This document shows positions 6,614-59,011 of a stretch of 64,000 nt of DNA, one piece after another. The position numbers and the translations under genes are program-made. The DNA is taken from positions 64,001 through 128,000 of the forward strand of contig CAVTBV010000006.1 of NCBI GenBank assembly GCA_963733095.1, written 5' to 3'. This DNA comes from Candidatus Bathyarchaeota archaeon. GTDB lineage: Archaea > Thermoproteota > Bathyarchaeia > Bathyarchaeales > Bathycorpusculaceae. How positions within the stretch are numbered: the first letter of the stretch is position 1; each line of letters begins with the position of its first letter. The notes beneath the pieces are model-generated. The model was not told where the DNA came from. It saw only the letters and a program-made list of their open reading frames with translations, and made no database searches.

Positions 6614-6614
6614 C

Positions 6615-40412: not shown

Positions 40413-40509
40413 CCATTTTTTGAGGTGACACAAATCTAATATTATGTGGGTTTATAAGAATTGCCGTAAATCTTTTAATGCAACTCCATCATTGAGTTGT
40501 AGGGTTTAG

Positions 40510-40529
40510 GGGTTCGTAGCCTAGCACGG
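40510..40529 (+). repeat. left att site: GGGTTCGTAGCCTAGCACGG (tRNA-Arg nt 1-20)
   Basis: Identical to 58936-58955; the sequences diverge on both sides. Confidence 0.93.
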
Positions 40530-40588
40530 CATATATCGCTGCTGGTGATATCACCTTTAAATTCTCTACCTACAAAATGCATCTTCCC

Positions 40589-40615
40589 TTTTTCTTTTTT
40601 TGGCTTATTTTTTTT
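40589..40615 (+). terminator. oligo-T archaeal terminator just inside the left att site
   Basis: T5-C-T7-GGCTTA-T8. Confidence 0.5.
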
Positions 40616-40673
40616 GGGTCTGCATATCTCATCACTGTTTACCCTCTTTCTTCCTACCAGTGGAGGCTCTTGA

Positions 40674-41000
40674 TTGACTCAGGACAACGATTTTGTTATT
40701 GTACCTTTTAAAAGCAGAAAGCGTCTTTTCCGCTCAGATAAGGGTAAGCGGCATAACTATCCCAAAGAACGCAAGTTTTGGAATTTGATGTGTCATGGAC
40801 ATTCTGGCTCTAATTTAGGTTTTAACCCAACAGGCGCCAATAGTGCTGTCATGGACAATGATAAAACGTTCAAGCATTCGACTGAGCTGCGTGAGTATTG
40901 GCAGCTTGAGAAGCGCAAGCAAAGAAACCAAGCGAGGAGCGTCAAGGAAGCTAAAACCGAACAAATCAGGAAACTGGGAGGCGGTGAGCGACTTGTTTGA
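40674..41000 (+). CDS. basic hypothetical protein (element)
   Basis: GGAGG upstream; RSDKGKRH motif; K/R rich. Confidence 0.65.
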   Translation: MTQDNDFVIVPFKSRKRLFRSDKGKRHNYPKERKFWNLMCHGHSGSNLGFNPTGANSAVMDNDKTFKHSTELREYWQLEKRKQRNQARSVKEAKTEQIRKLGGGERLV

Positions 41001-41721
41001 AGACTTCAAAGAGAAAGTGCGTAAGCACAGCCAAATCGAACAGAAGCCGTTGAGTGCTTCACTGTCTCCTCAGATCCTTGAGAAGCTTAAAAAAGAGGGC
41101 GTAGACCCAGATAATTTTACTCTGAAGCAGTTATGGCCTGAAGTTCTAGACAAGGATGGCACTGATTTATCTCTCATGTCCGGCGCAGAAATGGAAGTGA
41201 TGGTGGCTTATGGAACGCTTCGTAAGTATCTTATCGAGAAGTATCCGCAGTCTCAACAAGAAGCCAAGGCGCTTGGTCAGGTTTGGGATGAAGAGCCGGA
41301 CGAGCCCTACCAAATCAACGCAGTTAAAGCCCGAGAAGATCCGAAAGGCAAGCTCTTCTGGCAATCGGTCCTAAAAATGGCAGCCATATTTGACAAAGTA
41401 CGTGTGTTGCAGACTCAAGCCTTAGAATACGAGAAAATCTGTATCCGCATGTACTGGCATCTCTCCTATAATTGGACTCATGCTCCAAACGTCGAGGTTT
41501 TTAGAGGCAGCTTTGAGAATCGTGACGGTGACATTTTCGAGATAGTGGAGACCTACTTCAAAATCTGCAGAAAATATCATGTTTCAACCTTTGAGAAGCC
41601 ATACTACTTTTTGCCTGATGAGCGTAAGCGAGACATAAAGCTGGAGGGCGACATGCTCAAGCGCACGGGCAGCTACAATGAAAATGAAATCCGCATTTCA
41701 ATTTTGGAAGGAATACCGTGA
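40984..41721 (+). CDS. hypothetical protein (element)
   Basis: GTG start after GGAGG, overlapping the previous gene. Confidence 0.75.
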   Translation: MSDLFEDFKEKVRKHSQIEQKPLSASLSPQILEKLKKEGVDPDNFTLKQLWPEVLDKDGTDLSLMSGAEMEVMVAYGTLRKYLIEKYPQSQQEAKALGQVWDEEPDEPYQINAVKAREDPKGKLFWQSVLKMAAIFDKVRVLQTQALEYEKICIRMYWHLSYNWTHAPNVEVFRGSFENRDGDIFEIVETYFKICRKYHVSTFEKPYYFLPDERKRDIKLEGDMLKRTGSYNENEIRISILEGIP

Positions 41722-42152
41722 ACGATATCCTCGAAAGACGCTTAGAATTCCTAAAGCTCGAAGCAAAAGGTTTAACGCTCTGTGAAATTGTGAAGGTTCT
41801 AAGCGAAAAATACCAAACCTCAGAGAGAAACATCTACTACGACGCAGAAAACCGCGACACCTGGCAACCCGTCCTAACCCAACTCTTCGACTTAGACAAA
41901 GCACGGCTCATAATCGTGAATCGGTACGACTATCTTTACCGTGTGGCAAGCCTCCATTTTCAGACTGCAGGGGAAACGCAAAAACCAGTTTACCTCTCTA
42001 AGATGGTTGACATAACTGATCGCCTTGTAACCTTGCTGGGGCTAGAGACGCTTAAAGAAAAACAAGATAAAGAGAAGCACGAAGTGGAAATTGAAAAAGA
42101 AATCGCAGAAAATGAAGCCTTATTGCAAGCTTCAAAATTTGGGAGGACGTAG
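41718..42152 (+). CDS. HTH protein, terminase small subunit-like
   Basis: N-terminal HTH (RRLEFLKL..KGLT..EIV..LSEKYQTSERNIYYD), then helical oligomerisation-type segments ending in LLGL. TerS-like size and layout. Confidence 0.5.
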   Translation: MNDILERRLEFLKLEAKGLTLCEIVKVLSEKYQTSERNIYYDAENRDTWQPVLTQLFDLDKARLIIVNRYDYLYRVASLHFQTAGETQKPVYLSKMVDITDRLVTLLGLETLKEKQDKEKHEVEIEKEIAENEALLQASKFGRT

Positions 42153-42372
42153 TTATTACTTTTCACCAAAAAACTTAAAGTATTGCCCTGCATTTCACCC
42201 AAATAGAGAGCCGCACTCTATCCTTGTTAGTAAACAAGTGGATTCGACTAGCCTATAGTTGCCCTGTAAACCAAAATGTTACTGCGGATTTCTTGTGCGA
42301 GGAGCAACCTATGATTACTATTTTACTAAATAGAGGAAATCTGGATCATCACCAAATAACAAAAAACGCTCT

Positions 42373-43536
42373 TCAATGCTTGTGTTTTCTAAAGTAAGTC
42401 AACAATGTTAATGCTGTTGCGGTGGTGAATACTGTGAGAATTGTCAATGGTGAGAACTCTGGAACTGTAGGAGTGGGTGTGGGCGATATGGACGGCAAAG
42501 AGTCATCGGAAACAAATTGAATGGAGCTGTTACCCATAGCAAGCATCAAATTCTTTCCTGTATCGTAAACCATGAAAACGCTGCTTATAGGAACAGTTTC
42601 AATAACACTTCTTGTTTTATCTGATATTATGTAGGTTGTGTTAAGCGCAGTGCCCGCAAACAAGACACTCTTTACTGGGTCATAAGCAACACATATTGGG
42701 TTATATTCCAGCGGAATGGAGTCTATTACTGTATGGGTTTTATCGGATATAACTAGCACAGACCTATTAGAAGGCAGATATATTTCGCCTGTTACGGCGT
42801 CATAGGCTCCAGCAGCCCCTATACCACTGTCTAAGGGCACGGTTGCAATAACGGAATTAGTGGCATCCGATATTACTGACAGGAAATGTATCGGGTTTTC
42901 GCCTGGTCTATTTTTTTCACGGTAGACATATATTTCTCCCTTTCCAGAATCGTAGATTAAGCGTGATGGAGGCGGATCGTCTCCTAAGGGTATGGTTTCC
43001 ACTACTTGTTTGGTTGTCTCTGATATGACTAAGACCTCGGCAGTGAGAGTGCTATAGTCATAGCTGCCGACGAATATTTCGCCTCTGCCAGAATCATAAA
43101 CTATAAATCCGATACCTCTATCTCCTTGGCCTGAGTTTTTGTTCAAGTCGATAGTTGCCATCACTGAATTGCTGGCATCAGATATAACTGATATAGTGCC
43201 TGAGCCTTGATTTGCAACATAAATTTCATGAAGCGCAGAGGCATAGGCAATGCTGACTGGATTTTGACCAACTGTGACATTTGCAAGAACTTTGTAGTTG
43301 CTGTCTGATATTGCTGCTACTGTATTGGTTGGCTTGGAAAGCGGCATTCCCAACTCATTGGTGTATGAATAATCTGTGGTTACCCACACTGCGCCTTTAT
43401 AAGAATCATAAGCCATAATTGGCGGTCCATTATATGGAATCGATTTGACTATTTCAATTGCTTGAACTGGAATTATAGATGTCAATACCACCAAAACTGC
43501 CAGAAATAGAATAAACAAGCAATTCGCGGTCTTCAT
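42373..43536 (-). CDS. YncE/YVTN-type beta-propeller surface protein with PEF-CTERM-like anchor
   Basis: Signal peptide, repeats YDSGKGEIYV...SVISDATNSVIATV, then TPTPTVPEF-TM-RKHKH. Confidence 0.88.
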   Translation of the reverse strand: MKTANCLFILFLAVLVVLTSIIPVQAIEIVKSIPYNGPPIMAYDSYKGAVWVTTDYSYTNELGMPLSKPTNTVAAISDSNYKVLANVTVGQNPVSIAYASALHEIYVANQGSGTISVISDASNSVMATIDLNKNSGQGDRGIGFIVYDSGRGEIFVGSYDYSTLTAEVLVISETTKQVVETIPLGDDPPPSRLIYDSGKGEIYVYREKNRPGENPIHFLSVISDATNSVIATVPLDSGIGAAGAYDAVTGEIYLPSNRSVLVISDKTHTVIDSIPLEYNPICVAYDPVKSVLFAGTALNTTYIISDKTRSVIETVPISSVFMVYDTGKNLMLAMGNSSIQFVSDDSLPSISPTPTPTVPEFSPLTILTVFTTATALTLLTYFRKHKH

Positions 43537-43899
43537 TTTCGATTTGCTCCAATTAGACAGTCGGTTGTGTTCCTAATAGATATTTGCACAGTTTCGTTTG
43601 TTGACTAAAATTTCCCCAACAAGATTGAGTAGTTGGCGATCGTGTCTTCCGGAAAAGTTACAAAGACAGAAAAAACTACTTATAAAGTAAATATAATGAG
43701 AATCGAAGAGTAAACGTAAGCCTAATACCCTCTTAAGCCTGAATAAAATAGATAGCCCTCCCTTCTGTTATTGAAACCTCGACATAACAATAGAGCGGTA
43801 CTGCCTTAATAACGCAAAGCCTCGATTAAGCCACAATTTTGGTCATAAAGTTTAAAGCGTATAAAAAAAGGAGATGGTTGTTTGAACAGATTCTTACGG

Positions 43900-44784
43900 C
43901 TAAGCAACAGGTCGGAATAAATTTTCTCGTGTCAACTGAGCTGAGGGAACAAGATCATTGTAGAGAAAACCGCTTTCATAACTGCCAAGCTGTACTACAT
44001 CTTTAGGAGCACTAGTTAATGGGTCTTCAAAGATGGAAACTGAACTGTTTGTCATCGTTACGTAACCAATTCTGTAGACAGTGACTGAGACGGAATTTGG
44101 TTTTCCTGCACCAAATAGTCCTAACGCGCTAACCGGTGAGTTAGTGTACGATGTAATGGTACCAAGTGTGTCGGTTAAAAACGATTTGTTGCTATCCCAT
44201 TTAAATTTAAAGTTGCCTGCAAGGTTGCTATAAAGACTAGCGTTATACAAGTCGGGTACATATTGAATCAAAGTCGATAGGGAAGCATTAGAAAGCGAAG
44301 AATCATAGGTGGTTCCCATAAAATAAGCACGGTATTCTGCAGGTCCTGTATCTGCAGCAATTTTGATTCCATAGACTTCAACAACCGCATCGCTACCCGG
44401 AAACTGCACTTGCGAAGTTAACGTGATATTCAACCGTATTACTGACGGATATTGGGTGAAAAGGCGCATCGTCGTGTCTGTTCCTTTCTCGAAATATGTG
44501 CTTACATTGGATGGGGCGGGTCCAACATATGCGTATGCTACGTGGACTTGAAATTGTGTCTGTGGAGACGCCACTTCATGGGGGGCAGTAGGAATGCTTG
44601 TTTGGGAGGGCGTTTGGATGGTGTCAGGAGGTTGGATAGAGCCAGGAGGTTGGATAAGTGTAGGAGATTGGATAGAGGTAGCTAAAGCGAGTGAGATTGG
44701 AATAGTAAGCATAAGTGCAATAATCAAGCCTAATGCAATCTTTCGTTTGTCAGAAGATAGAAGTTTATTGATAGGGTTATGCAT
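43900..44784 (-). CDS. secreted/membrane-anchored protein
   Basis: Basic patch plus TM/signal peptide, IQPP repeats, S/T-rich body. Confidence 0.75.
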   Translation of the reverse strand: MHNPINKLLSSDKRKIALGLIIALMLTIPISLALATSIQSPTLIQPPGSIQPPDTIQTPSQTSIPTAPHEVASPQTQFQVHVAYAYVGPAPSNVSTYFEKGTDTTMRLFTQYPSVIRLNITLTSQVQFPGSDAVVEVYGIKIAADTGPAEYRAYFMGTTYDSSLSNASLSTLIQYVPDLYNASLYSNLAGNFKFKWDSNKSFLTDTLGTITSYTNSPVSALGLFGAGKPNSVSVTVYRIGYVTMTNSSVSIFEDPLTSAPKDVVQLGSYESGFLYNDLVPSAQLTRENLFRPVA

Positions 44785-45511
44785 AGGGATCCAACCAATC
44801 ACCGTAAGTGGAAAACTGGCTGTAATAATGTGCTGTTAGGAAAGCATAAGACGAAATTTCTTCTGGCATGTTGGACCAATACCCGCTAGTCTGGGCATAT
44901 TTATAGTAGACAGTCCAAGGATTATTGATGTAGAAGAATGCACCCCGAGTCATGCCTTCGGCTGAATAGCGGTCGCCAAAATCCCAATTCCACTGAGAAC
45001 CGACGTAATTACAATAGTAATAAACATACTGCTGACCATTCCAATATCGAATGTCCGGATGTTTCCATTCGTCATATTCATAATACCAATAGGAATTCAG
45101 CCATTCACCGCTAGAGTAGTCATAAGTAACGTAGCGAGTTGCAGATGGTAGACCGAAATCAACGTCAAAAGTCATTTGCATCGGCGGCATTGTACGTACT
45201 GGAGAGTCATCATAAGTGCTACTACTACACCCTGCTTGGGTACTAAACCACCAGTTTCCGTAATTGTAATATGGATCATAATAGTAAGCATAAGGGTCAT
45301 AGTCTGTATATAAGCCGAGTCCGACCATCATGTTGTCAGATGCACCTAGGGCAGAATGCTCGCAGTCGTTAAAACACGGGTAGTCAGAAGGAGGATTATA
45401 ATTATCACTGCACCAGCTTTTACCCGAAGGCCCAACTGCTAATGTCATTGGCAATGAGATCATTAGCATAACAAATACAAGCGCAAATATTGTTATATGA
45501 ATTTTGTGCAT
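44777..45511 (-). CDS. Tyr/Trp-rich secreted protein
   Basis: AGGTGA upstream, signal peptide, very high Y/W content and several Cys. Confidence 0.75.
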   Translation of the reverse strand: MHKIHITIFALVFVMLMISLPMTLAVGPSGKSWCSDNYNPPSDYPCFNDCEHSALGASDNMMVGLGLYTDYDPYAYYYDPYYNYGNWWFSTQAGCSSSTYDDSPVRTMPPMQMTFDVDFGLPSATRYVTYDYSSGEWLNSYWYYEYDEWKHPDIRYWNGQQYVYYYCNYVGSQWNWDFGDRYSAEGMTRGAFFYINNPWTVYYKYAQTSGYWSNMPEEISSYAFLTAHYYSQFSTYGDWLDPYA

Positions 45512-45922
45512 TTCTATCACCTGTTTGTATTGCCTTTGTTTGTTCTCTTTGTGCCCTTCCCTTAGGGCTAGGCGGTGACACGCCCCCAAGGCAATCAGCC
45601 CTGGCTTCGCTAACTTATTTGATATTGTATGAGAGCTAAAGCAAGCATGCCAGTCGTGTTAATTGTGACAAGAAGTCGCTGATTTTTTAGTCATCCGTTT
45701 CAGCCCTCATATTCTTGGGTGAAAGCGTTTGCTTTCCAACCCGTCTATCTAGCGGGCTTTGCTTATAAAATGCTATTAAGCCTTAGTATTCCTAATCCTA
45801 TTCCTAATCCAATCATGACTAAAACTGCATAAGTGTTAAACAAATCAAAAACGAATTGTCGAAAAAGTACTGCTTATAAACTGGTAAGATTTAACAATTT
45901 TTACAAGAGAAGGTGCTTGAAA

Positions 45923-46234
45923 ATGGAGAGAACAAACGTTCATAAGAAAATCTTCGTAGCCTTCTCAGATCTAGCTATCATGGTAGCGCTGAAAAATCAA
46001 ATCATGACGGGCTATGCCATCAACAAGTATTTTGTGAGAAAAACCGGAGACATAGCAAGCACCAGCACGGTTTACTCTACACTTGCAACTATTGAGAGAA
46101 AAGGCCTAATAAAATGTGTTAGGAATAAAAGCGGTCGAGCTTATGCTTTAACAGACGAAGGCGAGAAAATCGTCAACTGTGTAAGTAGCGTAATTGAAGA
46201 AAGCAAACGATTCATCGACAAACTTCTCACATAG
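45923..46234 (+). CDS. PadR-like wHTH regulator
   Basis: MTGYAINKY...STSTVYSTL..IERKGLI...YALTDEG. Confidence 0.85.
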   Translation: MERTNVHKKIFVAFSDLAIMVALKNQIMTGYAINKYFVRKTGDIASTSTVYSTLATIERKGLIKCVRNKSGRAYALTDEGEKIVNCVSSVIEESKRFIDKLLT

Positions 46235-46423
46235 CGCCACTGCAAAAACCAAAGATTTTTGATTTATTGTTATTTTTTAGGTGTTGTCTATTGGTAGAGT
46301 CTTTTTTACGAGCAAGCTTTGCTTCTGGTTTTTAGGCATTATTTCTTTTTTTGTGTTAGCGGATGCTATAACTTGCAAAGTTTCTTATACCGAATTAGCG
46401 CATGGATAAAGAAAGGTGGGCTG

Positions 46424-46822
46424 ATGAAAAAGAAATTCATTTTAGCAATAGCAGTTGTAACTATTCTGTTAGTAGCGATTGGCGTAGGATTGTTTTTTTT
46501 CAACGGTCAAGCTCCTCCTGAGGTTAAAGCCCGTGATTCGGCAATCAGTTATATTAAAGACAACCATTCCGAAACGTCTTTTATGATGCATACTTTTGCT
46601 TGGGAAGGTGGAATACGATATAATTTTGAAGCTGGAAAAGACTCCTACATTTACTCGAGTCCAGATCAGGGGTGGAGTCTAACCATTCAACGCCCTGAAG
46701 GCGCCACTGACGCAACTTATACCATACTGGCTGTCTGCACTTCAGGCGGCGCTGTTCTTGAGTGGCACGGAACATACCACGACGGAGTAATCACCGAAAC
46801 AAGTTATCGGCTTACTCAATAG
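46424..46822 (+). CDS. small membrane-anchored exported protein
   Basis: MKKKFILAIAVVTILLVAIGVGLFFF signal anchor. Confidence 0.75.
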   Translation: MKKKFILAIAVVTILLVAIGVGLFFFNGQAPPEVKARDSAISYIKDNHSETSFMMHTFAWEGGIRYNFEAGKDSYIYSSPDQGWSLTIQRPEGATDATYTILAVCTSGGAVLEWHGTYHDGVITETSYRLTQ

Positions 46823-47020
46823 AAAACAACGCACTAAATCCCTACTTTGTCTGGTCCAGAAAACGTCAAAGTACCAATATCAACAGTAGTATGCTTGGGT
46901 TCGCAATGAAGAAAGCAATAGGCTGACAAATGCCAATGCAAGAAGCCAAGGCAAATTAAAATTAGGTTTATTGAATCTAGCCATTGTTGGAGTGATAAGC
47001 CCTTATTTTTTGAGCGATTG

Positions 47021-47338
47021 TTAAAGTGGGGATTGTTTTGATTGAACTATTCCCCTCTTCAACGCTAAAAAGACAAAGAACTGAGCACATGCCGCTACAA
47101 CAGCTGCTTTCAATGCAGATAAGCCCTCCAGGCCAGCAACAGACCCCCCACCCAAAGTGCTAAAGAAGGTTAAGCCGCTGATGATTGCAGCATCAACAAG
47201 CGCATCTTCCCAGTCGAACTTTTGCATTGAAATATTTGCCAAACTGTTCGTGCAATAGATGATTAATCCCTTAACAGTTAATCTCGGAATATAGTTTCTT
47301 TCTTTTAGGATACTTGTACATTTCTTTACTGTCGCCAT
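47021..47338 (-). CDS. small two-TM membrane protein (holin-like)
   Basis: Two hydrophobic helices and a basic C-terminus; downstream of the tail-fibre-like gene. Confidence 0.5.
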   Translation of the reverse strand: MATVKKCTSILKERNYIPRLTVKGLIIYCTNSLANISMQKFDWEDALVDAAIISGLTFFSTLGGGSVAGLEGLSALKAAVVAACAQFFVFLALKRGIVQSKQSPL

Positions 47339-47408
47339 TTGTCTACCACTTTTTTTTACTTTTGGTTTTTTTACAAAAAAGGAAAAAGGAAATTATTTGC
47401 TTTGACTT

Positions 47409-47600
47409 CTAGTTTTTGCTGGTTTTCTGCTGATTCGCTTTTAAGTCAGCGTTCTCCTTTTTTAAAGTGCCATTCTCGTCCATAATTGTCTTCATTACAC
47501 TGTTGAGCTGGGTCATCATGTCGTTGATGCGCAGGTTAAGCATGCCGATCTGTTGCATGACTGGTGAAGCTTCAGCTGTGTTTTCGGTCAATGTAGTCAC
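47409..47600 (-). CDS. small coiled-coil protein
   Basis: GGAGGTG start; heptad pattern LNLRINDMMTQLN...LKKENADLK. Confidence 0.65.
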   Translation of the reverse strand: MTTLTENTAEASPVMQQIGMLNLRINDMMTQLNSVMKTIMDENGTLKKENADLKANQQKTSKN

Positions 47601-47635
47601 CTCCGGGCGAGTTTGATTTTTGGTTGAGTGGTGAG

Positions 47636-51003: not shown

Positions 51004-51056
51004 TTTAGATCATCAACTAAGCACTCGCATTTTTGTAATTTAAACAATTTTATGGC

Positions 51057-51199: not shown

Positions 51200-51320
51200 T
51201 CAAGAAGAGTGTTTATTAAGGATTGCATGTCGTCTTTCATTTTCATTGAATTTAGGATTGGAAGGAAAAACAAGCAGTTTGCCATAAGCCTTTTAACAAC
51301 AACAGTTTATTTAATTTAAT

Positions 51321-52175: not shown

Positions 52176-52371
52176 CATATTTGGCTCGATATTTGGGCGA
52201 GTTTTTCTCGACATAGCCACTAAAAACTAAATGGGTAAACGTATTTTCAAAACTTGCATGAGTACCCGCTTTCGCAATGGTGCGTTTCGCTAGTTCTGTT
52301 CGGCTCAAAGGCTGACGACTAAGCTCATGCAAAATGATTTTTGTCAATTCTATGTTCAAATTCTTCATCAA
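52120..52371 (-). CDS. small wHTH protein
   Basis: ILHELSRQPLSRTEL...LVFSGYVEK...YVMTDKG; GGAGG upstream. Confidence 0.75.
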   Translation of the reverse strand: MMKNLNIELTKIILHELSRQPLSRTELAKRTIAKAGTHASFENTFTHLVFSGYVEKNSPKYRAKYVMTDKGVTMLKALEETKH

Positions 52372-53033
52372 GCCTTTAGTCCTCCTTATGAACAGATTAC
52401 CAATTGCACATTTCTAACTGCAGTCTTCTTCGGTGTGCCAGACGGTCCATATGCGTACGCCATAGCGTTTCAATAAGAGTTTTAGAGCCAGGATTATGAA
52501 TGAGACAACTCCAATTTCTTGCTCAATGGCGGTTATCTGCTCAAATAAAATTCGTATCATCCATACACTTCCAAACTGTTTATTACCCTTTATTCTTTTA
52601 AACTACAAGATAAACCGACACTCTAGAGTCGGGGAGGGTTAAACGAAAGTGAAAATTACTGCTTTTACTAATCAACACCTAGGTAACTACTGAGCTGTAA
52701 CTTGTTTGAAAAGAAAACGGGTGAAGAAGAGGAAGACTGGCGCTACTCCTGATGAACCTTATGATCTTGAGGATGAACCATAAGTCGGTCTTTTTCAGGG
52801 CTTAGGTTTCTCCAACATTGATTGAACTTTTGTGTAACATGTAACTTAATCTTTATCGTTTCCTCTGGCATATGATAGCTCGTGCCACAAAGGCGCTTAT
52901 AGGTTTCAGCGTAAACTTCAACCGATAATTTCTTTGACATAAAACCCAATCATCACTAACTACCTGTGAAACTTGCTAACACTAAGCATGAAAAAGACCC
53001 AACTTCCAAATCAGTCATAGTTGTAGACACTAC

Positions 53034-53303
53034 TTAGCCTTGCTTTTCAATCGGTACTCTAATTTTTTCAGACATAAGTTTAGGCAAAAGTAAGTCCCGA
53101 GTATTTGTTAAATTGCGTAACTCGCTTTCGTTTAGAAGAACTTTACCATCTAAAGCTTATATCAGTTCACCAAACTTTTCCTGCAAATCCTTTGATGAAA
53201 TAATTACCTCAAACTCATTCACATCTTGCTTATTGACTTGTCCTCTATTAATCAAGCACATTAAATCGAAGAAGATAAAAGCTCTTTGACCTGATACTTT
53301 CAT
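53034..53303 (-). pseudogene. hsdS: relic C-terminus of type I R-M specificity subunit
   Basis: ...LQEKFGELI*ALDGKV...LRNLTNTRDLLLPKLMSEKIRV matches the HsdS C-terminal RD.LLPKLMSG motif. In-frame TAA at 53157-53159. Confidence 0.7.
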
Positions 53304-53317
53304 CACTCGAATGTTTC

Positions 53318-54103
53318 CTACTTTAGCCTTTCAACAAGTCGTTTTAGAGGCGCAAGAGTGCTTTGGTTTTTCTGCTCAATTTCAGTTGTTACTCTTGAGA
53401 AAATTTGATAAAGATTTTCGTTGTGAAGATTGCCGTTTCCATGCAAAAATGAAACCTGAAAAGCGAATGCTTCAATAAAAATCTCGCGCAATGTTATCAA
53501 CTCCATATTTAGGAATTCCTTTATGTCCAATTCAGCATCTTTTGCACTCATTCCCTGTTGATCTATCATGATTTTCTTCACGTAATCTACGTTAGGCAAT
53601 TTATCTTTCGCTATGGCCTCTGCTGCGGCATTTACTATCGCTCGATAAATATCTGATCCATAATGCTGCTCAAACCAATCTATCTCCTTGAAAACTGCAA
53701 AATCTAACGTGACACCGCAGACTTTTAGAAACTTTGCTAAATCTTTTAGATTACACGGCTTTATCTTGCTAACAATAACTTGGTTTGATAGGTCAATTGT
53801 GTAATTATATTTGCCGTTTGCTGATAAAAAATCACTAGATGTCGGCACAATCGAGTTTAGAAAAGTGAAGACACCTTTGAGAGTCAAGGCGTAAATCTTC
53901 TTTTCTTTTCCTCCTTTCTCAGAAGGTTCAACCCTTACTAACTTGATAAAGCCTTGACTTTCCAAGGGCTTGAGAGTTCTGAGGATAGTCCGATAGCTAA
54001 GACCTGTTTCTCCAGGCATTTTATATTGTTCTAATTCAGCGGTTGTTAGAAATGCTCTCATTATTTTTGTTTCAGTTTTAACTGCAGTCTTTGTCCTTGA
54101 CAA
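53318..54103 (-). CDS. wHTH transcriptional regulator (putative element repressor)
   Basis: GLSYRTILRTLKPLESQGFI...GGKEKKIYALTLKG; divergent from the replication operon. Confidence 0.75.
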   Translation of the reverse strand: MSRTKTAVKTETKIMRAFLTTAELEQYKMPGETGLSYRTILRTLKPLESQGFIKLVRVEPSEKGGKEKKIYALTLKGVFTFLNSIVPTSSDFLSANGKYNYTIDLSNQVIVSKIKPCNLKDLAKFLKVCGVTLDFAVFKEIDWFEQHYGSDIYRAIVNAAAEAIAKDKLPNVDYVKKIMIDQQGMSAKDAELDIKEFLNMELITLREIFIEAFAFQVSFLHGNGNLHNENLYQIFSRVTTEIEQKNQSTLAPLKRLVERLK

Positions 54104-54177
54104 TGTGACATTACCTATCGTATTATGCCAAACAATGCTTATAAGGTTATTGGAACATTATACCAATCGATGTGACA
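54103..54177. promoter_or_regulatory. bidirectional switch region
   Basis: Palindromic CTTATAAG (54138-54145) lies midway between two ATGTGACA direct repeats (54103, 54170). Confidence 0.5.
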
Positions 54178-54181
54178 AAAT

Positions 54182-54358
54182 ATGCCCATAATCAGGAAAC
54201 TGACAACAGTAGGCGCATCAAAGGGAATAACCCTGCCAAAAAGCTGGCTAGAGAACGCCGAGCAACAAACAGGTGAAAAAATAATAGCAATCGCCCTTGA
54301 AGTTAACGATACAATAACTATTCAGCCAGTTTTTGCAAAAAAGGAGAACCAACAATGA
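54182..54358 (+). CDS. AbrB/MazE-type DNA-binding protein (58 aa, not in ORF track)
   Basis: MPIIRKLTTVGASKGITLPKSWLE...LEVNDTITIQPV; the stop overlaps the next ATG. Confidence 0.85.
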   Translation: MPIIRKLTTVGASKGITLPKSWLENAEQQTGEKIIAIALEVNDTITIQPVFAKKENQQ

Positions 54359-54753
54359 GCGGCGAACACAAGATTGACCTATCAAAGCTCAACGATTTTG
54401 AAATCTCGACGCTAATAATCGAGCGCAATACTTGTCAACATAAGGCCGAACAGATAGACGAACTTCTAAACAAGATCGGGGAAGCCAAAGGATATACCGA
54501 TGCAACTCTTCCAATCAAGAGTGAACCGAGCCAATTGCCCGGGACAGACTTCGATAAGCTACCATGGAAGTCCTATAGAACTAAGCAAGCCGCAGGTCCA
54601 AATGAGGCCGCATGGATTTTCTCCAACACTAAAGGTGATGAAGCGTTACTAGCTGCTTTAAAGTCAAAAAACGGAAGGGTAACCATTGAAAGTTTTGAGT
54701 ATCAACTTCAAGGAAATGCAAAGCAATTCGTTGCTAGGAACCCAATCAAATAA
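54355..54753 (+). CDS. hypothetical protein (element replication operon)
   Basis: Coupled ORF; LPWKSY...AWIFS motif. Confidence 0.75.
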   Translation: MSGEHKIDLSKLNDFEISTLIIERNTCQHKAEQIDELLNKIGEAKGYTDATLPIKSEPSQLPGTDFDKLPWKSYRTKQAAGPNEAAWIFSNTKGDEALLAALKSKNGRVTIESFEYQLQGNAKQFVARNPIK

Positions 54754-54765
54754 GGAGTTAAGTGA

Positions 54766-55833
54766 GTGCTGGCAGTTCAATACTATGTTGAAAATTCTTC
54801 AGATGAAACTCAAGCGCTCAATCTGTTAAAGAGACTCTTTGTCAACCGGACTGATTGTTACTGCATCCAACTCAAGCAACAAGGATACACTCGCATAACC
54901 GAGCCGTTAACCGATGAAGTATTGCTGCGTCATTTAAACGGCGACATGACAGTTGGGTCATATCAAATAGACGTTTACAATTGTGTTAAGTGGCTGTGTT
55001 TCGATTTTGATCCTGAAAAGTTACCTATTCCAAAAGGAGCAGTTAAACAAGTTTTATCAATAATGCTGGAAAAACAAAAAGGAGAGAACGGTACCAAAAC
55101 ACCAAGAATATGGCCCAACAGCATTATCTTGGAGTCTTCACGCTATCCTGACCCATCATACCATATTTGGGTGCTATTTCAAGACGCAATTAAAGCCAAA
55201 GCTGCCCGATGGTTGGGGCTATACATTCTTGAAATGGCAGGTTTAAGTCCTAAGCAAGTTGAAGTTTTCCCCAAACAAGATGAAGTTACACTAGAGAGAC
55301 CGTTTGGTAACTTTGTGAAGTTGCCTTTTGGGAAGCATCAGGTTGAAGGTAAATGGAGCAGAATGTTGGACTTAGAGACCTTTGAGCCATTGCCATCTGA
55401 AGAGCTAGAAAGCAAATATGGCTTAACTTTTAGTGAAAAGGACCTGGAGCAACTTGAAGGGTTACAAACAAAGAAGAACGTTCAAGTCAAGTTTGATGCG
55501 CCAACAGTTTCCAAGGAATTAGGGGGCAAAGATGAAGAAAAAACTGCACACTTTCTATCACGATACTGGTTGCCCGGGTACAGAAACGATCTAACTCTAA
55601 GTTTTTGTGGCATGTGCATAAAACAAGGCATCAGCCACAAATCCGCAAAACGAGTAATAGGGGAAGTCTGTGAGAGAACAGGTACTTCTTCTTGTGAGAC
55701 TTCGGAATTTCTTCAGAAAGTAGATTACCAGTTTACCAATCGAGCCAACCTTGGAAGTTTGAAGGGCAGTTCCGGTATCAGAGAAGTCATTGAAGCGATA
55801 AAAGAAAAACAAACCGTTCAGGTGCATACTTAA
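54766..55833 (+). CDS. AEP-family primase-polymerase with PriCT-like C-terminus
   Basis: LFVNRTD, HL.G..TVGSY, CFDFD (DxD), SYHIWVLF, EVFPKQ, GNFVKLPFG; C-terminal G.RND. Confidence 0.85.
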   Translation: MLAVQYYVENSSDETQALNLLKRLFVNRTDCYCIQLKQQGYTRITEPLTDEVLLRHLNGDMTVGSYQIDVYNCVKWLCFDFDPEKLPIPKGAVKQVLSIMLEKQKGENGTKTPRIWPNSIILESSRYPDPSYHIWVLFQDAIKAKAARWLGLYILEMAGLSPKQVEVFPKQDEVTLERPFGNFVKLPFGKHQVEGKWSRMLDLETFEPLPSEELESKYGLTFSEKDLEQLEGLQTKKNVQVKFDAPTVSKELGGKDEEKTAHFLSRYWLPGYRNDLTLSFCGMCIKQGISHKSAKRVIGEVCERTGTSSCETSEFLQKVDYQFTNRANLGSLKGSSGIREVIEAIKEKQTVQVHT

Positions 55834-57464
55834 TGTTGAGCAATAAACTAGAAAAAATTGAAAAAGATGTAGAAGAAAAAGACGTTTACGTTCAAAAGCC
55901 AACGGTAGTAACTCGAGAGTTTATAGCGGAAGAAGTCTGGGACAGAAGAGATCATCCTCAATATTTAGTTTACCGCTTCAAGGAAGACGCCTTTGAAACC
56001 CAAAAAGAAATTTCATCAGGGGAAACTAACGCTAAAGGACAAAACATCATCTATGTTCCGGTTTACAACGATTCTCTAAAGAAAGGCCTGATAATTGTTC
56101 CGAGCGGATTTAGTGAAACTACGTTTAAGCAATTGTTTGAGGAGATAGATAAGTTTGCGCTGCTAAGTTACGATCCTTGCGGACAGGATGCTCTTGTTAA
56201 CTTGCTTACACGAATCTGCGTTGGATCATGGTTTCTTGACCGGTTTGTTTCTGACCCCGTTTTTGACATAGCTGGAAGCGGAAAATTTGCACCTATAATC
56301 CCAATTCGTGGACCAAGCCAAAGCGGCAAAAACCGCTTAGCCTTTGTTCTAAGATTACTAAGTTACAAACCATACTTTGAAATGTCGACTTACCGAATAC
56401 CCAGCCTTTACCGACCAATGGATCTCTGGCAAGGAACACTTGTGCTTGACGAAGCAGACTTCGCAAACACTAACGAGAAAAGCGAACTAGTACATTTCTT
56501 GAATTGCCGAGCAACTGGAACACCGTTAAGTAGACAAAACCCAAACAACCCAGGAGTCACGGATACTTTCACCAATTTTGGTCTAACAATCGTAACGCAG
56601 CGTAGGCCTTTTGATGATAACGCAACAGAAAGCCGAGCTTTGCCTTTCTACAGCGAAGCCAGCGACAAGCGCCTGCCAGTGATTGAAACAGACGAAATGC
56701 TCAAGCAAGGCTTAGAACTGCAAAACAAGCTCCTGTACCTGAGAATGAAGTATTACCGACAGGTTTCAATAAACAAGGAAGCCTGGGTCGATGAATTAAA
56801 TGACCATCGGCTAGTAGCTTCACTGTTGCCTCTTATCGCCTTAAGCAGTCATGAGCCAAGCCTAAAAGACACCATAACAAAAACCGCTAAAGAGGTAGAA
56901 AAGGCAAAGATAGAGGAAAAAGCTAACAGCATGGATGGTCTAATTATCAATTTCTTATGGGATAAAATCAATGAAGGCCTATTCGACAACTGGCGACCCA
57001 ACATCTTTTACATACTAGATAAACGGGAAATAGGAACTGTAGATGATGACAAAGAAATAGAGCAGAAGACTGCTTTAACAACAAAAGAACTAGCGGACCA
57101 GTTTAAATGGAGCTCACAGTCAATCCGTAAGGCTTTAGGCAGTTTAGGCATTGCCGAAAAAGGGTTGCCTACTCAAGTAAAAGTTGATGGTCGCAATTCT
57201 AGAGTTATCTTTTTTGATCCAAGGAGAATTGAGAAGCGGCTTAGAGAATTTGTAGTTAATTATTCACCTGGAAAGGTAGCGGAAGTAACGCGAGTAACGG
57301 ATTTAGCATGCGGTATACCTGATAGTCCGTTATTTGCTTTTTCAAGAAAAGATGAAATGCTGCATAGAAAAAGCGTTACTTCCGTTACCAGCGTTACCGA
57401 GCCTGAGCATTTCCTTTCTGATTTTGAGGATAAATGTGAACCGCCAAGCGAGGAGGTATCCTGA
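55833..57464 (+). CDS. primase-associated P-loop ATPase/helicase-like replication protein
   Basis: Walker A GPSQSGKN, Walker B LVLDEAD, arginine finger ESR, C-terminal wH; coupled to the primase. Confidence 0.75.
   Translation: MLSNKLEKIEKDVEEKDVYVQKPTVVTREFIAEEVWDRRDHPQYLVYRFKEDAFETQKEISSGETNAKGQNIIYVPVYNDSLKKGLIIVPSGFSETTFKQLFEEIDKFALLSYDPCGQDALVNLLTRICVGSWFLDRFVSDPVFDIAGSGKFAPIIPIRGPSQSGKNRLAFVLRLLSYKPYFEMSTYRIPSLYRPMDLWQGTLVLDEADFANTNEKSELVHFLNCRATGTPLSRQNPNNPGVTDTFTNFGLTIVTQRRPFDDNATESRALPFYSEASDKRLPVIETDEMLKQGLELQNKLLYLRMKYYRQVSINKEAWVDELNDHRLVASLLPLIALSSHEPSLKDTITKTAKEVEKAKIEEKANSMDGLIINFLWDKINEGLFDNWRPNIFYILDKREIGTVDDDKEIEQKTALTTKELADQFKWSSQSIRKALGSLGIAEKGLPTQVKVDGRNSRVIFFDPRRIEKRLREFVVNYSPGKVAEVTRVTDLACGIPDSPLFAFSRKDEMLHRKSVTSVTSVTEPEHFLSDFEDKCEPPSEEVS
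57275..57398. repeat. two inverted arrays of three 9-bp iterons (candidate origin)
   Basis: GGTAGCGGA-AGTAACGCG-AGTAACGGA (57275-57301) and AGCGTTACT-TCCGTTACC-AGCGTTACC (57372-57398). Confidence 0.6.
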
Positions 57465-57470
57465 GAGTTT

Positions 57471-58847
57471 ATGGTTGAGGTTCAGGGAAAAGCGTCTGCC
57501 TCTCCCGGCATACTTGGCAGTAACAGCGTTGACGATGGCACATGTCTTAGTGCTGTGCTTGAAGCTGGGACGCTCCCAAATGAGCCTCAACCAAACGTTA
57601 CCACAACCATATCCCCGGGTAGCTACGATGCACCCATTAAAACGGTCCAATGCCCCGAGTGCGGCAGCACTAAAGTGTTCCGAAACGGCTTTTCCGACAG
57701 CGATTTTGATGCGAGAATTCAGCGTTATGTCTGCCGATCCTGCGGCCGCCGCTTTTCTGATCCAGACGATCTAAAGAGGGCAAAACAAGTCGCAGACAAT
57801 TATCTGCATACGTTGAACTTAAAAGTGGCAGACACTAATATCGAAGATAGCCAAGTATGCGTCTTAAAGGAAGAGGCGAAAAACTTGACACTCGAAACGT
57901 CTGAGAAAATCAGCGTTTTGCAGGGAGAAAAACAAGCAGCACGCGGAATAGACCTTATCGTCAGAGACTTTCAGTGGCAACTCAAGATAGAAGGCAAAGT
58001 GGACGTCACTATCAGAAACTATGGTTACTCGCTTCTACGGCTCTCAAAGCTAGGTGTTGACCTATTCAACCCTGAATCCTTCAAAGAAGGCATGGCATTC
58101 AACGATACCCTAAAGAAAATGACTCCCATAAGGCGGCATGGGTTAACCAAAGCCTACAAAAGTTTCTTAGCTCACAACGGCATTAAAGCAGAGATACCCA
58201 AAATCAAATTCAAACGCAAAATCCCCTACATACCGCCAAAAGAGCACCAAGATCAGCTTTTCTCACGTTGCAGCCCTCAAATGGCGGCTTTCTGCTTCAC
58301 GATGCAAGCAACCGGTGCCAGACCCATTGAGGCTCTTAGAATCGAATGGAACGACATCGACAGATCCCACAAGCGAATCAACATTAACCATCCAGCCAAA
58401 GGCGGCAACAGTCGAAGTATACCTGTTAGCGAGCAACTCATAGAAATGCTGCTGATACTGCCACACGTCAACGGTAAACTGGTCTTCACATACGGAACAA
58501 CCGACAACGCAGGGAATGTCTTTAGAAGAATGCGCACCAGAGCAGTCAGACAATTCGGCAACCCAGAGCTGAAAAGAATTAGCTTCTACAGTTGCCGATA
58601 CTGGAGAGCAACCAAAGAACGCCACGCCAAAGGCAACCCCGACGCCGTCCAATACCTACTAGGACACAGCTCCTTAGCCTACGTTCAAATCTACGCACAG
58701 CTAGCCGCTCAATGTTTCGGCGACCAAGAATATGATGTGATAGAAGTCAGAGATGCCCAGACACTAAGAGAAGTCGGCAGGAAGGGCTACGAGAAATACG
58801 GCGAACTCAACGGCGTATTATACTACCGCAAGCCCAAAACGGATTGA
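57471..58847 (+). CDS. tyrosine integrase with N-terminal Zn ribbon
   Basis: CPECGS...CRSCGR; catalytic TGARPIEAL (R), AKGG (K), FYSCR (YxxR), LLGHS (H) and IYA (Y). Ends 88 bp from the right att site. Confidence 0.92.
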   Translation: MVEVQGKASASPGILGSNSVDDGTCLSAVLEAGTLPNEPQPNVTTTISPGSYDAPIKTVQCPECGSTKVFRNGFSDSDFDARIQRYVCRSCGRRFSDPDDLKRAKQVADNYLHTLNLKVADTNIEDSQVCVLKEEAKNLTLETSEKISVLQGEKQAARGIDLIVRDFQWQLKIEGKVDVTIRNYGYSLLRLSKLGVDLFNPESFKEGMAFNDTLKKMTPIRRHGLTKAYKSFLAHNGIKAEIPKIKFKRKIPYIPPKEHQDQLFSRCSPQMAAFCFTMQATGARPIEALRIEWNDIDRSHKRININHPAKGGNSRSIPVSEQLIEMLLILPHVNGKLVFTYGTTDNAGNVFRRMRTRAVRQFGNPELKRISFYSCRYWRATKERHAKGNPDAVQYLLGHSSLAYVQIYAQLAAQCFGDQEYDVIEVRDAQTLREVGRKGYEKYGELNGVLYYRKPKTD

Positions 58848-58935
58848 TGCGACATGAAAAACCTAAATACACCGTATACCTCTAAAAAACCGCTATCACA
58901 TTTAGCACCGTGTACTAGCAGTTCATCATGGAAAA

Positions 58936-59011
58936 GGGTTCGTAGCCTAGCACGGATTAAGGTGTCGGCCTTCGGAGCCGGAGATCGAGGGTTCAAATCC
59001 CTCCGGACCCG
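58936..59011 (+). tRNA. tRNA-Arg(TCG); nt 1-20 form the right att site
   Basis: GGGTTCG...TCGGC-CTTCGGA-GCCGG...GGTTCAAATCC...CGGACCC-G; no encoded CCA. Confidence 0.95.

Follow-up and report, generated by a model that had tools for sequence, protein, structure and literature searches.

The window analysed here, a whole stretch of 64,000 nucleotides of Candidatus Bathyarchaeota DNA, contains an 18.4-kb unit with a tail-fibre gene and no recognisable head genes, which raises the question of what kind of mobile element this is. The original prediction took it for an archaeal analogue of the phage-inducible chromosomal islands (PICIs) of bacteria. The analysis favours, with a probability of about 0.5, an intact, integrative and self-replicating, plasmid-like "cryptic integrated element" (CIE) that carries a virus-derived fibre cassette; it may ride on head-tailed viruses. 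New here are its membership of a family, the head-gene-free relatives with variable cargo, and the homology of its fibre and fibre partner to those of a tailed provirus.

The unit is bounded, as had been proposed, by exact 20-nucleotide direct repeats (GGGTTCGTAGCCTAGCACGG) at positions 40510 to 40529 (attL) and 58936 to 58955 (attR), spaced 18,426 nucleotides apart and matching at 20 of 20 positions. This is the sole exact long direct repeat within positions 40000 to 59500, the 20-mer occurs at these two sites only across the whole 2.84-Mb assembly, and by our own arithmetic the chance expectation for such exact 20-mers in 19.5 kb is approximately 2e-4. The attR copy forms the first 20 nucleotides of a tRNA-Arg(tcg) gene (58936 to 59012, plus strand), and attL is a copy of this 5' end. 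In the host flank, 97 nucleotides outside attL, ARAGORN identifies a tRNA-Ile(gat) gene (40335 to 40412, minus strand); the same flank adjoins a sister element in genome G001. Metagenome contigs in three of four runs present an element-free junction from the tRNA-Ile flank (40478) to the tRNA-Arg gene (58941), which hints only weakly at an empty site in relatives because the anchors are short (25 to 30 nucleotides at 90% likeness).

The predicted integrase and archaeo-eukaryotic primase (AEP) were both confirmed by family matches. The intact tyrosine integrase (57471 to 58847, plus strand), with an N-terminal zinc ribbon, matches Phage_integrase at 3.9e-15, the Zn ribbon at 1.6e-6 and phrog_1 at 1.4e-24, and shares 48 to 51% identity with its counterpart in the G001 element, which occupies the same tRNA site. 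The primase-polymerase (54766 to 55833, plus strand) matches AEP-TOTE (PF22548, 7e-25) and phrog_5362 (8e-20), and its homologue in the relative L116 is 62% identical. The intervening gene product (55833 to 57464, plus strand), previously read as an ATPase, contains Walker A-like (GPSQSGKN) and Walker B-like (LVLDEAD) motifs and a C-terminal winged helix-turn-helix (wHTH) but has no match in Pfam, PHROGs, NCBIfam or the PDB. A weak homologue occupies the equivalent position in L116, and this P-loop NTPase-like protein is a candidate helicase or initiator. A conserved 132-residue protein (54355 to 54753, plus strand) is 57% identical to that of G001 and 66% to that of L126.

The proposed regulatory switch consists of a 261-residue wHTH protein (53318 to 54103, minus strand), 39% identical to its G001 counterpart, and a 58-residue AbrB/SpoVT/MazE-like protein (54182 to 54358, plus strand). 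Their genes are indeed transcribed divergently, with 78 nucleotides between them, but the assignment as a switch is built on sub-threshold family matches: PadR (0.006) and eWH for the former and PF04014 (8.1e-4; 19.7 bits, the cut-off being 24.7) for the latter. A further PadR-type wHTH regulator (45833 to 46234, plus strand), 67% identical to the G001 copy, matches Pfam PadR over the cut-off (4.2e-7).

Next to attL lies a trio of plus-strand genes. The first is a small basic ORF of 108 residues (40674 to 41000), which shows 64% identity in the G001 element and is present in 17 of 68 metagenome loci; its N-terminal 40 residues and upstream DNA are conserved at four other sites of the source genome. 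The second, backbone gene A, encodes an all-helical protein of 242 residues (40993 to 41721), the most likely start being the TTG at 40993 rather than that of the listed ORF (40843 to 41721), because the homologues start there. These homologues are 46 to 80% identical, lie invariably upstream of gene B and occur in 12 of 401 genomes of the class, all 12 within the source genome's own family. No match to gene A was found in Pfam, PHROGs, NCBIfam, the PDB or the ESM Atlas, nor by Foldseek with its AF2 model (pLDDT, 65.8). The third, backbone gene B (41718 to 42152), encodes 144 residues modelled as an N-terminal HTH followed by long helices (AF2 pLDDT, 78.3). It retrieves 665 protein clusters at an E value of ≤1e-3, the best 120 of which are at least 71% identical. 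Genes A and B occur together in all seven genome loci; of the 68 metagenome loci, mostly short contigs, 57 contain both. Judged by these homologies, the element is a member of a widespread family of Bathyarchaeia integrative elements that has the gene pair 40993/41718 as its hallmark.

Two relatives are complete or near-complete enough for the absence of head genes to be judged, and their backbone genes are 46 to 90% identical. The sister element in G001 spans 29.6 kb at the same tRNA-Arg/tRNA-Ile site, has its own exact 20-bp repeats, and shares, besides the integrase, 132-residue and PadR genes compared above, the wHTH gene, a two-helix protein (62%), the fibre cassette and the trio (64 to 79%). 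Its additional DNA encodes a radical SAM protein, a glycosyltransferase and a PQQ propeller, together with a 374-residue ORF whose homologue in locus L003 is a NosD/beta-helix protein. L116 is a whole 19.8-kb contig with integrase, P-loop protein and primase at one end, the gene A/B pair at the other and, in the middle, genes for type ISP restriction-modification and for a metallo-beta-lactamase-fold protein that includes an RMMBL domain; it carries no fibre. The large terminase (TerL), portal and major capsid protein (MCP) genes that the original prediction would have taken as the mark of a deleted provirus are present in neither relative (0 of 2), nor are other terminase or capsid genes. Relatives share an integrase, a replication module, regulators, the highly conserved trio and a variable cargo bay. 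The replication modules differ (that of L126 is an MCM fusion), and the cargo bay may be filled with surface proteins, fibre cassettes or restriction-modification genes. IMG/VR yielded no member of the family.

The cassette of the present element comprises five genes. The largest encodes the 1,076-residue fibre (47636 to 50866, minus strand), which has no signal peptide; N-terminal repeats and a conserved "anchor" (about residues 215 to 400) lead into a variable shaft, and the C terminus forms a coiled coil. Its homology is mosaic. Residues 32 to 176 match PHROGs annotated as tail-fibre or virion structural proteins, at 3.5e-16 to 9.4e-7, and homologues lie in a provirus of G004. The 63-residue coiled-coil partner (47409 to 47600, minus strand), a putative fibre assembly factor, follows fibre genes in eight of eight Bathyarchaeia loci at 57 to 94% identity, provirus copies included, and one IMG/VR contig carries it downstream of an 812-residue ORF. 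The "holin-like" protein of 105 residues (47021 to 47338, minus strand) has two C-terminal hydrophobic helices, is 62 to 93% identical in L006, G001 and L121, and has no match in Pfam, PHROGs or NCBIfam. Divergent from the fibre gene is that of a secreted, membrane-anchored 284-residue protein (51321 to 52175, plus strand; signal and anchor read from the sequence), whose family pairs with fibre genes in L002 to L009 and which is a putative surface or exclusion protein. The fifth member is a small wHTH protein of 83 residues (52120 to 52371, minus strand; weak HTH_45 match, 0.0026), 56 to 70% identical beside the cassette in L004, L006 and L009.

In the G004 provirus, fibre homologues and then the 63-residue gene lie directly upstream of genes for TerL (5e-14), portal (5e-20), scaffold (4e-10) and an HK97-type major head protein (1e-14). 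These homologies place the fibre-like protein of the original prediction in the tail-fibre family of head-tailed Bathyarchaeia viruses. The cassette is accessory and lies outside the family backbone. Among family elements it was seen in only three (the present element, G001 and L121), and orphan cassettes lie between host genes in other genomes (L004, L005 and L007). That a fibre gene of 1,076 residues has stayed intact speaks more for a lifestyle tied to virions than for simple cargo, which weighs against the favoured reading.

The remaining cargo is dominated by secreted or membrane proteins. A YVTN beta-propeller protein (42373 to 43536, minus strand; TIGR02276, 3.8e-18) has a signal-like N terminus and a hydrophobic C terminus, read as a membrane anchor. 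It is followed by a secreted or membrane protein of 300 residues with an N-terminal hydrophobic segment (43900 to 44802, minus strand) and by a Tyr/Trp-rich, secreted protein of 270 residues (44777 to 45589, minus strand). Paralogues of these two in C14 are 67% and 49% identical, respectively, and homologues in L120/L121 are 60% and 51% identical. A 167-residue membrane protein with a hydrophobic segment (46319 to 46822, plus strand) is 85% identical in L121.

All 20 ORFs of the element are open, and scans of these 20 (Pfam, E ≤ 0.1; PHROGs, E ≤ 0.05; NCBIfam on 10 ORFs) gave no match to families of conjugation, tape-measure, terminase, portal or capsid proteins, in agreement with the first reading. 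The search for a co-resident tailed provirus in the source genome found no helper, portal or MCP, and the single TerL of that genome adjoins an ABC ATPase gene. Across the genus, tailed viruses are common (TerL in 53 of 61 genomes, HK97-type MCP in 25 of 61). No excised or circular form was seen: terminal repeats were present in 0 of 15 whole contigs tested, and in no public sequencing run did coverage of the words sampled from the element exceed 6%.

The identification of gene B as a small terminase (TerS) remains tentative. No sequence match was obtained (Pfam, PHROGs and NCBIfam included), and its best Foldseek matches, the small terminases of G20c and P74-26, have an E value of 0.41 and a TM score of 0.32. 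These proteins fill 9 of the best 14 listed PDB rows, but re-examination by VIA-align did not rank them. Its nearest neighbours in the ESM Atlas are clusters of HTH_23 proteins and of hypothetical Uroviricota proteins. On the model, a TerS-like gene B is a weak lead. Gene B is usually followed not by packaging genes but by a 189-residue gene and by genes for a GNAT protein and a small P-loop ATPase. Since no function is assigned to the trio or to the P-loop protein, 40674, 40993, 41718 or the P-loop protein may have an unrecognised virion or packaging role.

Satellites of the PICI and P4 type bring together an integrase, two divergent regulators and a module for priming and replication, without head genes, in about 10 to 20 kb, and variable defence or cargo bays are typical of bacterial satellites; to our knowledge, classical PICIs and P4 have no fibre gene. 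The element has this same architecture, cargo bay included. As a satellite of head-tailed Bathyarchaeia viruses it would, when a helper infects or is induced, excise, prime its own replication and be packaged in helper capsids, with gene B perhaps acting as a small-terminase-like specificity factor and its own fibre on the helper tail shifting the host range of the particles carrying it. The tailed-virus type of fibre and partner, the fold of gene B and its tailed-virus neighbours in the ESM Atlas, and the abundance of tailed viruses in the genus point in this direction, and a precedent for a satellite with its own tail-fibre gene exists in MiniFlayer, from Streptomyces phages (PMC10690885). 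Against this, the TerS comparison is non-significant, and gene B is far more conserved than the integrase (26 to 51%) and usually keeps company other than packaging genes. The cassette is absent from L116, no family member appears in IMG/VR, and the source genome has a lone TerL in place of a tailed provirus. No homology to PICI or P4 genes was found beyond generic integrase and primase superfamilies, and the element differs from them in its archaeal host, in its fibre gene and in having no demonstrated terS, sid or cpm analogue. The integrase, regulators, primase and lack of head genes of the supposed PICI analogue have thus held up, but its TerS, helper and excision have not; with these unsupported and the cassette accessory, a PICI-like lifestyle is plausible but less likely than the cryptic-element reading.

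The element could also be a non-tailed virus, for instance spindle-shaped or pleomorphic, with capsid proteins among its unannotated small membrane or secreted proteins, the 105-residue protein being the MCP and the fibre a terminal fibre, compare fusellovirus VP1 and VP4. Reminiscent of fuselloviruses are its 18 kb, its tRNA-directed tyrosine integrase, its large fibre and the small protein with its two hydrophobic helices; the SSV1 record includes an end-filament protein of comparable size, and a spindle-shaped Bathyarchaeia provirus, Huangdivirus, has been described (PMC10848311). This is nevertheless unlikely, as hhalign of the two-helix family against SSV1 VP1/VP3 gives a probability of 0.1%, there is no PHROG or Pfam match and no tblastn match among 50,697 phage and archaeal-virus records, and the relatives of the fibre reside in a tailed provirus. 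The two-helix gene and the cassette are moreover missing from L116 and are therefore not family hallmarks, whereas capsid genes would be. A head-tailed provirus stripped by deletion of the genes for head and tail, with those for lysogeny, replication and fibre retained, would account for the tailed-virus cassette and for the orphan cassettes among host genes. Yet the ORFs are all open and the att repeats identical, and the G004 provirus has in common with the element only the fibre, the 63-residue partner and the secreted-protein family, with no integrase, primase or gene-pair homologue in the stretches examined. Recent decay is decidedly unlikely because neither relative (29.6 and 19.8 kb) has a terminase, portal or capsid gene, or head and tail genes generally, and their cargo is variable.

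As a cryptic integrated element with a captured cassette, the unit would work as follows. The integrase would recombine an attP identical to the tRNA 5' end, restoring the tRNA, and after excision the circle would be copied by the primase and NTPase, with the switch set by the divergent wHTH/AbrB-like pair. The cargo here consists of secreted surface proteins and a host-recognition cassette captured from head-tailed viruses. A fibre without signal peptide would matter only alongside virions, and the cassette therefore most likely acts during infection by a tailed virus of matching tail type, where it would either place the element's fibre on helper particles or spoil them. The surface protein, transcribed divergently from the fibre, could make the receptor inaccessible in the carrier state.

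The CIEs of archaea were defined for Thaumarchaeota by Krupovic et al. 2019 (PMC6563490), with 17 kb as the median size of the class. In that account they share with the present element a tyrosine integrase, a tRNA att site, a size near the median and the lack of virus hallmark or conjugation genes, and with its family an AEP/MCM replication module, (w)HTH regulators and restriction-modification and other cargo. They are described there as without discernible signature genes, whereas the present family has its trio; some of its members also carry a tailed-virus fibre cassette, whereas the main text of PMC6563490 contains neither "tail fiber" nor "satellite". MiniFlayer, as portrayed in the relevant sections of PMC10690885, resembles the element as a helper-dependent element with its own fibre/adsorption module but has its own encapsidation genes, no primase or lysogeny module, and fibres that grip the helper neck; the two have no sequence relation. 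A plasmid-derived replication module is likewise joined to an incomplete virion module in pSSVx, pSSVi and the haloarchaeal SRCEs (bioRxiv 10.1101/2025.02.15.638363) and in the putative NMV2S of an Asgard siphovirus (bioRxiv 10.64898/2026.08.12.739948), and the sections on these four report no fibre gene. According to the same descriptions, pSSVx, pSSVi and SRCEs are small circles of 2.7 to 9 kb that depend on spindle-shaped viruses and encode an MCP and/or AAA+ ATPase, whereas the present element is integrative, of 18 kb and linked to head-tailed viruses. Head-tailed proviruses of Bathyarchaeia include the families "Fuxiviridae" and "Kunpengviridae", as named in PMC10848311. In the G004 provirus (locus L002/L092) the cassette leads into TerL, portal, scaffold and HK97 MCP genes, whereas in the element it sits in a plasmid-like backbone without them; the two share a fibre anchor 39% identical over 307 residues, a 63-residue partner 57 to 78% identical and the paired secreted-protein family.

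The 18.4-kb unit at 40510-58955 is bounded by an exact 20-bp repeat (40510-40529 and 58936-58955), the sole long exact direct repeat within 40000-59500, and this 20-mer occurs at no third place in the assembly (2.84 Mb, 16 contigs). The copy at 58936-58955 constitutes the initial 20 nt of a tRNA-Arg(tcg) gene (58936-59012, plus strand), and a tRNA-Ile(gat) gene (40335-40412, minus strand) lies just beyond the outer side of the other copy. Because the repeat copy coincides with the start of the tRNA and the integrase gene stops 88 nt short of it, the element appears to have replaced, and to restore, the 5' end of tRNA-Arg. The att-bounded unit of the original prediction is thus real, with one of its repeats inside a tRNA gene. 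Like PICI/P4-like islands, it falls in the 10 to 20 kb size range and carries its integrase next to a terminal att site. Its G+C content drops to 0.37-0.40 at 50-55 kb, compared with 0.42-0.45 for the contigs.

Twenty ORFs of the element were scanned against Pfam and PHROGs, and 10 of those also against NCBIfam. Matches above curated cut-offs identify an integrase with an N-terminal zinc ribbon (57471-58847) and an AEP primase (54766-55833; 7e-25), which confirms both of these predicted genes, as well as a PadR winged-helix protein (45833-46234) and a protein with YVTN beta-propeller repeats (42373-43536). Sub-threshold matches were obtained for a small winged-helix protein (52120-52371), a 261-aa winged-helix protein (53318-54103) and the AbrB/MazE-like 58-aa protein that faces the latter (54182-54358); the divergent switch proposed for this locus therefore stands as a facing gene pair, with family identities that come from sub-threshold matches. 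The protein following the primase (55833-57464), predicted to be an ATPase, contains motifs resembling Walker A and Walker B, as well as an HTH region at its C terminus. It is the sole NTPase-like product of the element, and it matched no family in Pfam, PHROGs or NCBIfam, with nothing usable from PDB profile and sequence searches. The AEP primase and this neighbor form a replication module of the element's own, as expected of PICI/P4-like satellites. Signal-like or membrane segments are present in five of the element proteins.

None of the 20 ORFs matched capsid, portal, terminase, tape-measure, tube or conjugation families, in a scan limited by the sensitivity of HMMs for archaeal viruses. 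The claim that no portal, large terminase, capsid, tape-measure or conjugation gene is recognizable was upheld at this level, and the absence of a complete virion gene set from the scanned ORFs agrees with the definition of PICI/P4-like satellites.

A sister element of 29.6 kb in a second genome (G001) occupies the same site between tRNA-Ile and tRNA-Arg(tcg), with the host flanks in common and its own exact 20-bp repeats (C4, 39428 and 69021). The two elements have in common the integrase (48% identity), a 132-aa gene (57%), a winged-helix protein, a two-helix protein (62%), PadR (67%), the fiber cassette and a trio of backbone genes starting at 40674, 40993 and 41718 (64, 68 and 79%, respectively). 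The additional 11 kb of the sister element encodes a GT4 glycosyltransferase, a PQQ beta-propeller, a radical SAM protein, large unknown proteins and a 374-aa ORF homologous to the NosD/beta-helix protein of the related locus L003, and none of these extra ORFs matched a head or tail family. A fiberless relative of 19.8 kb (L116, a whole contig) is framed by the integrase, a P-loop protein and the primase (62%) on one side and the pair 40993-41721 and 41718-42152 on the other. Its middle holds defense-type cargo (6505-11251), namely a restriction-modification system of type ISP (Type_ISP_C, 6e-75) and a protein of the metallo-beta-lactamase fold that includes an RMMBL domain. In a third element (L121), the cargo order and fiber cassette are alike (two-helix protein 93%, 63-aa protein 92%). 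In L126 and L128, an integrase gene immediately precedes the pair, which equals the integrase, att, trio order that the circular form of the window element would have. The replication module is variable, with the AEP primase in the window element and L116 and an MCM fusion in L126.

Homologues of 40993 were found in 12 of the 401 class genomes sampled, every one within the window's own family. The 41718 family comprises 665 protein clusters, with identities of 71% or more for the best 120, and 57 of 68 metagenome loci with 41718 also have 40993 (these loci are mostly short, and only 19 reach 4.5 kb). No family members were found in IMG/VR. The family cargo includes restriction-modification systems, STAND NTPases, surface proteins and the fiber cassette. 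Large STAND/AAA_16-TPR NTPases are encoded at L138:4909-7923 and L185:6246-9836, the latter with a KaiC-like domain. Several relatives have, after the pair, a 189-aa gene, a small (207-aa) P-loop ATPase and a 148-aa GNAT acetyltransferase (L115, 3586-5230; L116; L128; L129; L138), a set that may be a toxin-antitoxin or defense module and that is also present in the window's genome (G000, in which the window spans C6:64001-128000) without the pair, at C16:42373-43864. The gene after ORF 40674-41000 probably starts at a TTG that precedes the stop codon of this ORF, an overlap of 8 nt (40993-41000), and in the relatives at G387:C42 and G357:C8 similarity in the downstream frame extends upstream across one stop codon. 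Translational coupling or a frameshift could be the cause of this pattern.

The fiber gene (47636-50866) encodes a 1,076-aa protein without a signal peptide, ending in a C-terminal coiled coil. Its N-terminal repeats match PHROGs of virion structural and tail-fiber proteins, and its homology is mosaic: residues 1 to 370 are 42 to 57% identical to metagenomic proteins whose other parts differ, and residues 365 to 620 share 68% identity with another Bathyarchaeota protein. The Peptidase_S74 chaperone domain of tail fibers is present in 2 of the 15 closest relatives, with no match in the element's own fiber. At eight Bathyarchaeia genome loci, fiber relatives lie in a common cassette, which comprises a small winged-helix gene, an oppositely oriented gene for a secreted protein with a membrane anchor, the fiber, a 63-aa coiled-coil protein and sometimes a 105-aa two-helix protein. 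In a tailed provirus of genome G004 (L002/L092) and in L003, tandem fiber/63-aa pairs are followed directly by TerL (5e-14), and in G004 the portal (5e-20), scaffold (4e-10) and HK97-type major head protein (1e-14) come next. The 63-aa proteins of the element and the provirus are 57 to 78% identical, and another copy occurs in one IMG/VR contig downstream of an 812-aa ORF. Judged by sequence and gene neighborhood, the fiber-like adhesin of the original prediction is a tailed-virus fiber.

Among 61 genus genomes, this genome included, the fiber anchor region (residues about 215-400) was found in 14. Only 4 of 18 anchor matches, at G409:C27 and G425:C1, have a TerL match at a distance of about 10 kb or less; fiber cassettes therefore also exist outside proviruses, and host genes flank those of L004, L005 and L007. 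Single-protein scans of IMG/VR with the fiber or the P-loop protein as query returned zero relatives, and the fiber alignment yielded 80 loci that all match the N-terminal repeat region alone, a generic phage domain uninformative on context. The G004 fiber arrays are flanked by two TerL genes in divergent orientation, a layout also seen in G005/G425:C1. The second TerL gene (minus strand; L002/L093, G004:C2:47356-52300) is accompanied by secreted-protein genes. On one side of them lies a series of small ORFs on the plus strand, and on the other three ORFs with homology to G000:C16:61864-63886, of which the last is SecY, the only one annotated. The small-ORF series is a putative ribosomal-protein operon.

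For the TerS-like HTH protein of the original prediction (41718-42152), model comparison gave a weak resemblance to small terminases and sequence comparison no match. Its AlphaFold2 model (pLDDT 78.3) has an HTH (helices 3-16, 21-31 and 36-41) followed by three long helices (46-83, 89-106 and 109-142), as in the small-terminase layout, and the best PDB rows in Foldseek are the G20c and P74-26 small terminases (E value 0.41, probability 0.72, TM score 0.32). A second look with VIA-align gave only generic helical hairpins, and sequence searches, among them Pfam, PHROGs, NCBIfam and PDB, retrieved no TerS match. The nearest ESM Atlas entries, unnamed tailed-virus clusters and HTH_23 proteins, provide a lead only. 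In none of the 19 loci that reach 4.5 kb does TerL follow the 41718 homologue; the single nearby TerL (L185) lies past an integrase and a tRNA. On its model, 41718-42152 would be the element's sole candidate for packaging redirection of the terS/ppi/cpm/sid type. Its unusual conservation and neighbors that are not packaging genes better suit a regulator, or a protein in contact with a conserved host component. The model of 40993-41721 is all-helical at low confidence (65.8), with noise only in Foldseek and nothing usable in the ESM Atlas, and PDB profile and sequence searches with either protein gave nothing usable.

The co-resident tailed provirus sought under the original prediction was not recognized in G000, which is 95% complete and has one TerL (C8:5404-6849; phrog_2, 2e-33), preceded by a 147-aa HTH protein and followed by an ABC ATPase gene. 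Portal and MCP were not found in G000 by Pfam, by tblastn with 31 ORFs of the G004 stretch L092 or by the genus MCP search, and therefore no resident helper is visible. phrog_9232 matched nothing in G000, and neither did phrog_1650, an uninformative search in that its control matched nowhere. BLASTP detected no similarity between 41718 and the 147-aa HTH protein. TerL is present in 53 of the 61 genus genomes, with up to seven copies each, and the G004-type MCP in 25, G000 not among them. The 481-aa TerL of G000 lies outside a recognizable provirus (locus C8:5404-7249), and L185 has another pair of an HTH protein (150 aa) and TerL, adjoining tRNA-Arg. Many TerL genes of the genus may be such solitary pairs.

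No public run contains more than 6% of the element's sampled words. In the contigs of four wetland metagenome runs, the element appears in scattered low-depth pieces with no circular junction, a thin coverage that carries no weight on excision, and in three of the four runs the tRNA-Ile flank is joined to tRNA-Arg without the element. These joins are probably empty sites in relatives, weakly so because the anchors are only 25 to 30 nt at 90% likeness. Terminal repeats were found in none of 15 whole contigs. The single CRISPR array of G000 (C1:190709-192914, 37-nt repeat) holds at least 29 spacers, and the 29 extracted matched neither the element nor the remaining genome or the related loci compared (E ≤ 0.01).

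The reading with the most support, at a probability of about 0.5, is that the unit is an integrative element of plasmid-like type, belonging to a new and abundant Bathyarchaeia family and with a tail-fiber cassette in its cargo bay. In the available text of PMC6563490, cryptic integrated elements are a class described for Thaumarchaeota. Such elements have an integrase and direct repeats without a virus hallmark, conjugation or transposase module, with which the window element, the G001 element and L116 agree, and they combine an MGE-type replication protein (AEP, S3H or MCM) with variable cargo, as does the element's family. Unlike the Thaumarchaeota elements as described in that text, the window family is marked by the signature trio, and some of its members carry a fiber cassette of viral origin. 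A recently decayed provirus is unlikely. TerL, portal and HK97-fold MCP, which mark a Caudoviricetes provirus, had no match in the element, and identical libraries detected all three in the G004 provirus. Relatives that routinely carry terL, portal or MCP, named beforehand as what would speak for a deleted provirus, were not found, as the G001 element and L116 are without head genes. An unrecognized non-tailed virus is possible at low odds and unsupported. The product of 47021-47338 has two hydrophobic helices, but its hhalign probability against SSV1 VP1/VP3 was 0.1%, on very shallow alignments, and PHROGs, a PDB sequence search and tblastn in the phage collection all lacked a match, so that its candidacy as a spindle-virus capsid protein was set aside and kept as a low-odds rival. 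As for a morphogenetic AAA+ ATPase of the SSV/ATV type, the one NTPase-like protein (55833-57464) is encoded beside the primase and lacks a family match.

The most interesting live alternative to the plasmid-like element is a satellite of tailed viruses, which is possible if tentative. A fiber without a signal peptide would be sensible only alongside virions, tailed viruses are frequent in the genus, and bacterial satellites have a like layout of integrase, regulator and primase with variable cargo. The PICI analogue originally predicted is partly supported, by its island layout and replication module, with a weak candidate for a packaging gene and no helper provirus seen in G000. In its fuller form, about as tentative, an integrative satellite with its own receptor-binding fiber, 63-aa assembly partner and cognate surface protein would retarget the helper virions that package it to hosts that the satellite selects, and the trio would be its helper-exploitation module.

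Bathyarchaeia are among the commonest sediment archaea, and an abundant integrative family in them with tailed-virus fiber cassettes would give the study of virus satellites or virus interference in uncultured archaea a concrete candidate. On the conservative reading alone, it is a new family of archaeal integrative elements, easily recognized by the 40993/41718 pair, and it shows host-recognition cassettes traveling between tailed viruses and plasmid-like elements; the small portable cassette (winged-helix protein, secreted protein, fiber and 63-aa partner) forms a putative fiber and receptor-masking pair. Known archaeal virus satellites are few: in the text available from bioRxiv 10.1101/2025.02.15.638363, only pSSVx and pSSVi are described before SRCEs, all tied to spindle-shaped viruses, and that from bioRxiv 10.64898/2026.08.12.739948 has a single further case, a small element that is the putative satellite of an Asgard siphovirus. 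If the satellite reading were true, the family, with its 665 HTH-gene clusters, would be the first integrative PICI-like satellites known in Archaea.

Elsewhere in G000, tblastn located many more integrases of this zinc-ribbon type on C2, C3, C5, C8, C9, C13, C14 and C16. The small basic ORF that opens the element has four further copies in this genome, with the upstream stretch conserved at each. The sequences of these regions (C2:53283-62304, C14:10672-26910, C16:18682-43864, C3:81833-86799, C13:346408-347270 and C13:496864-496983) point to several related or decayed integrated elements in G000, and C14 carries paralogues of both secreted proteins encoded at 43900-45589.
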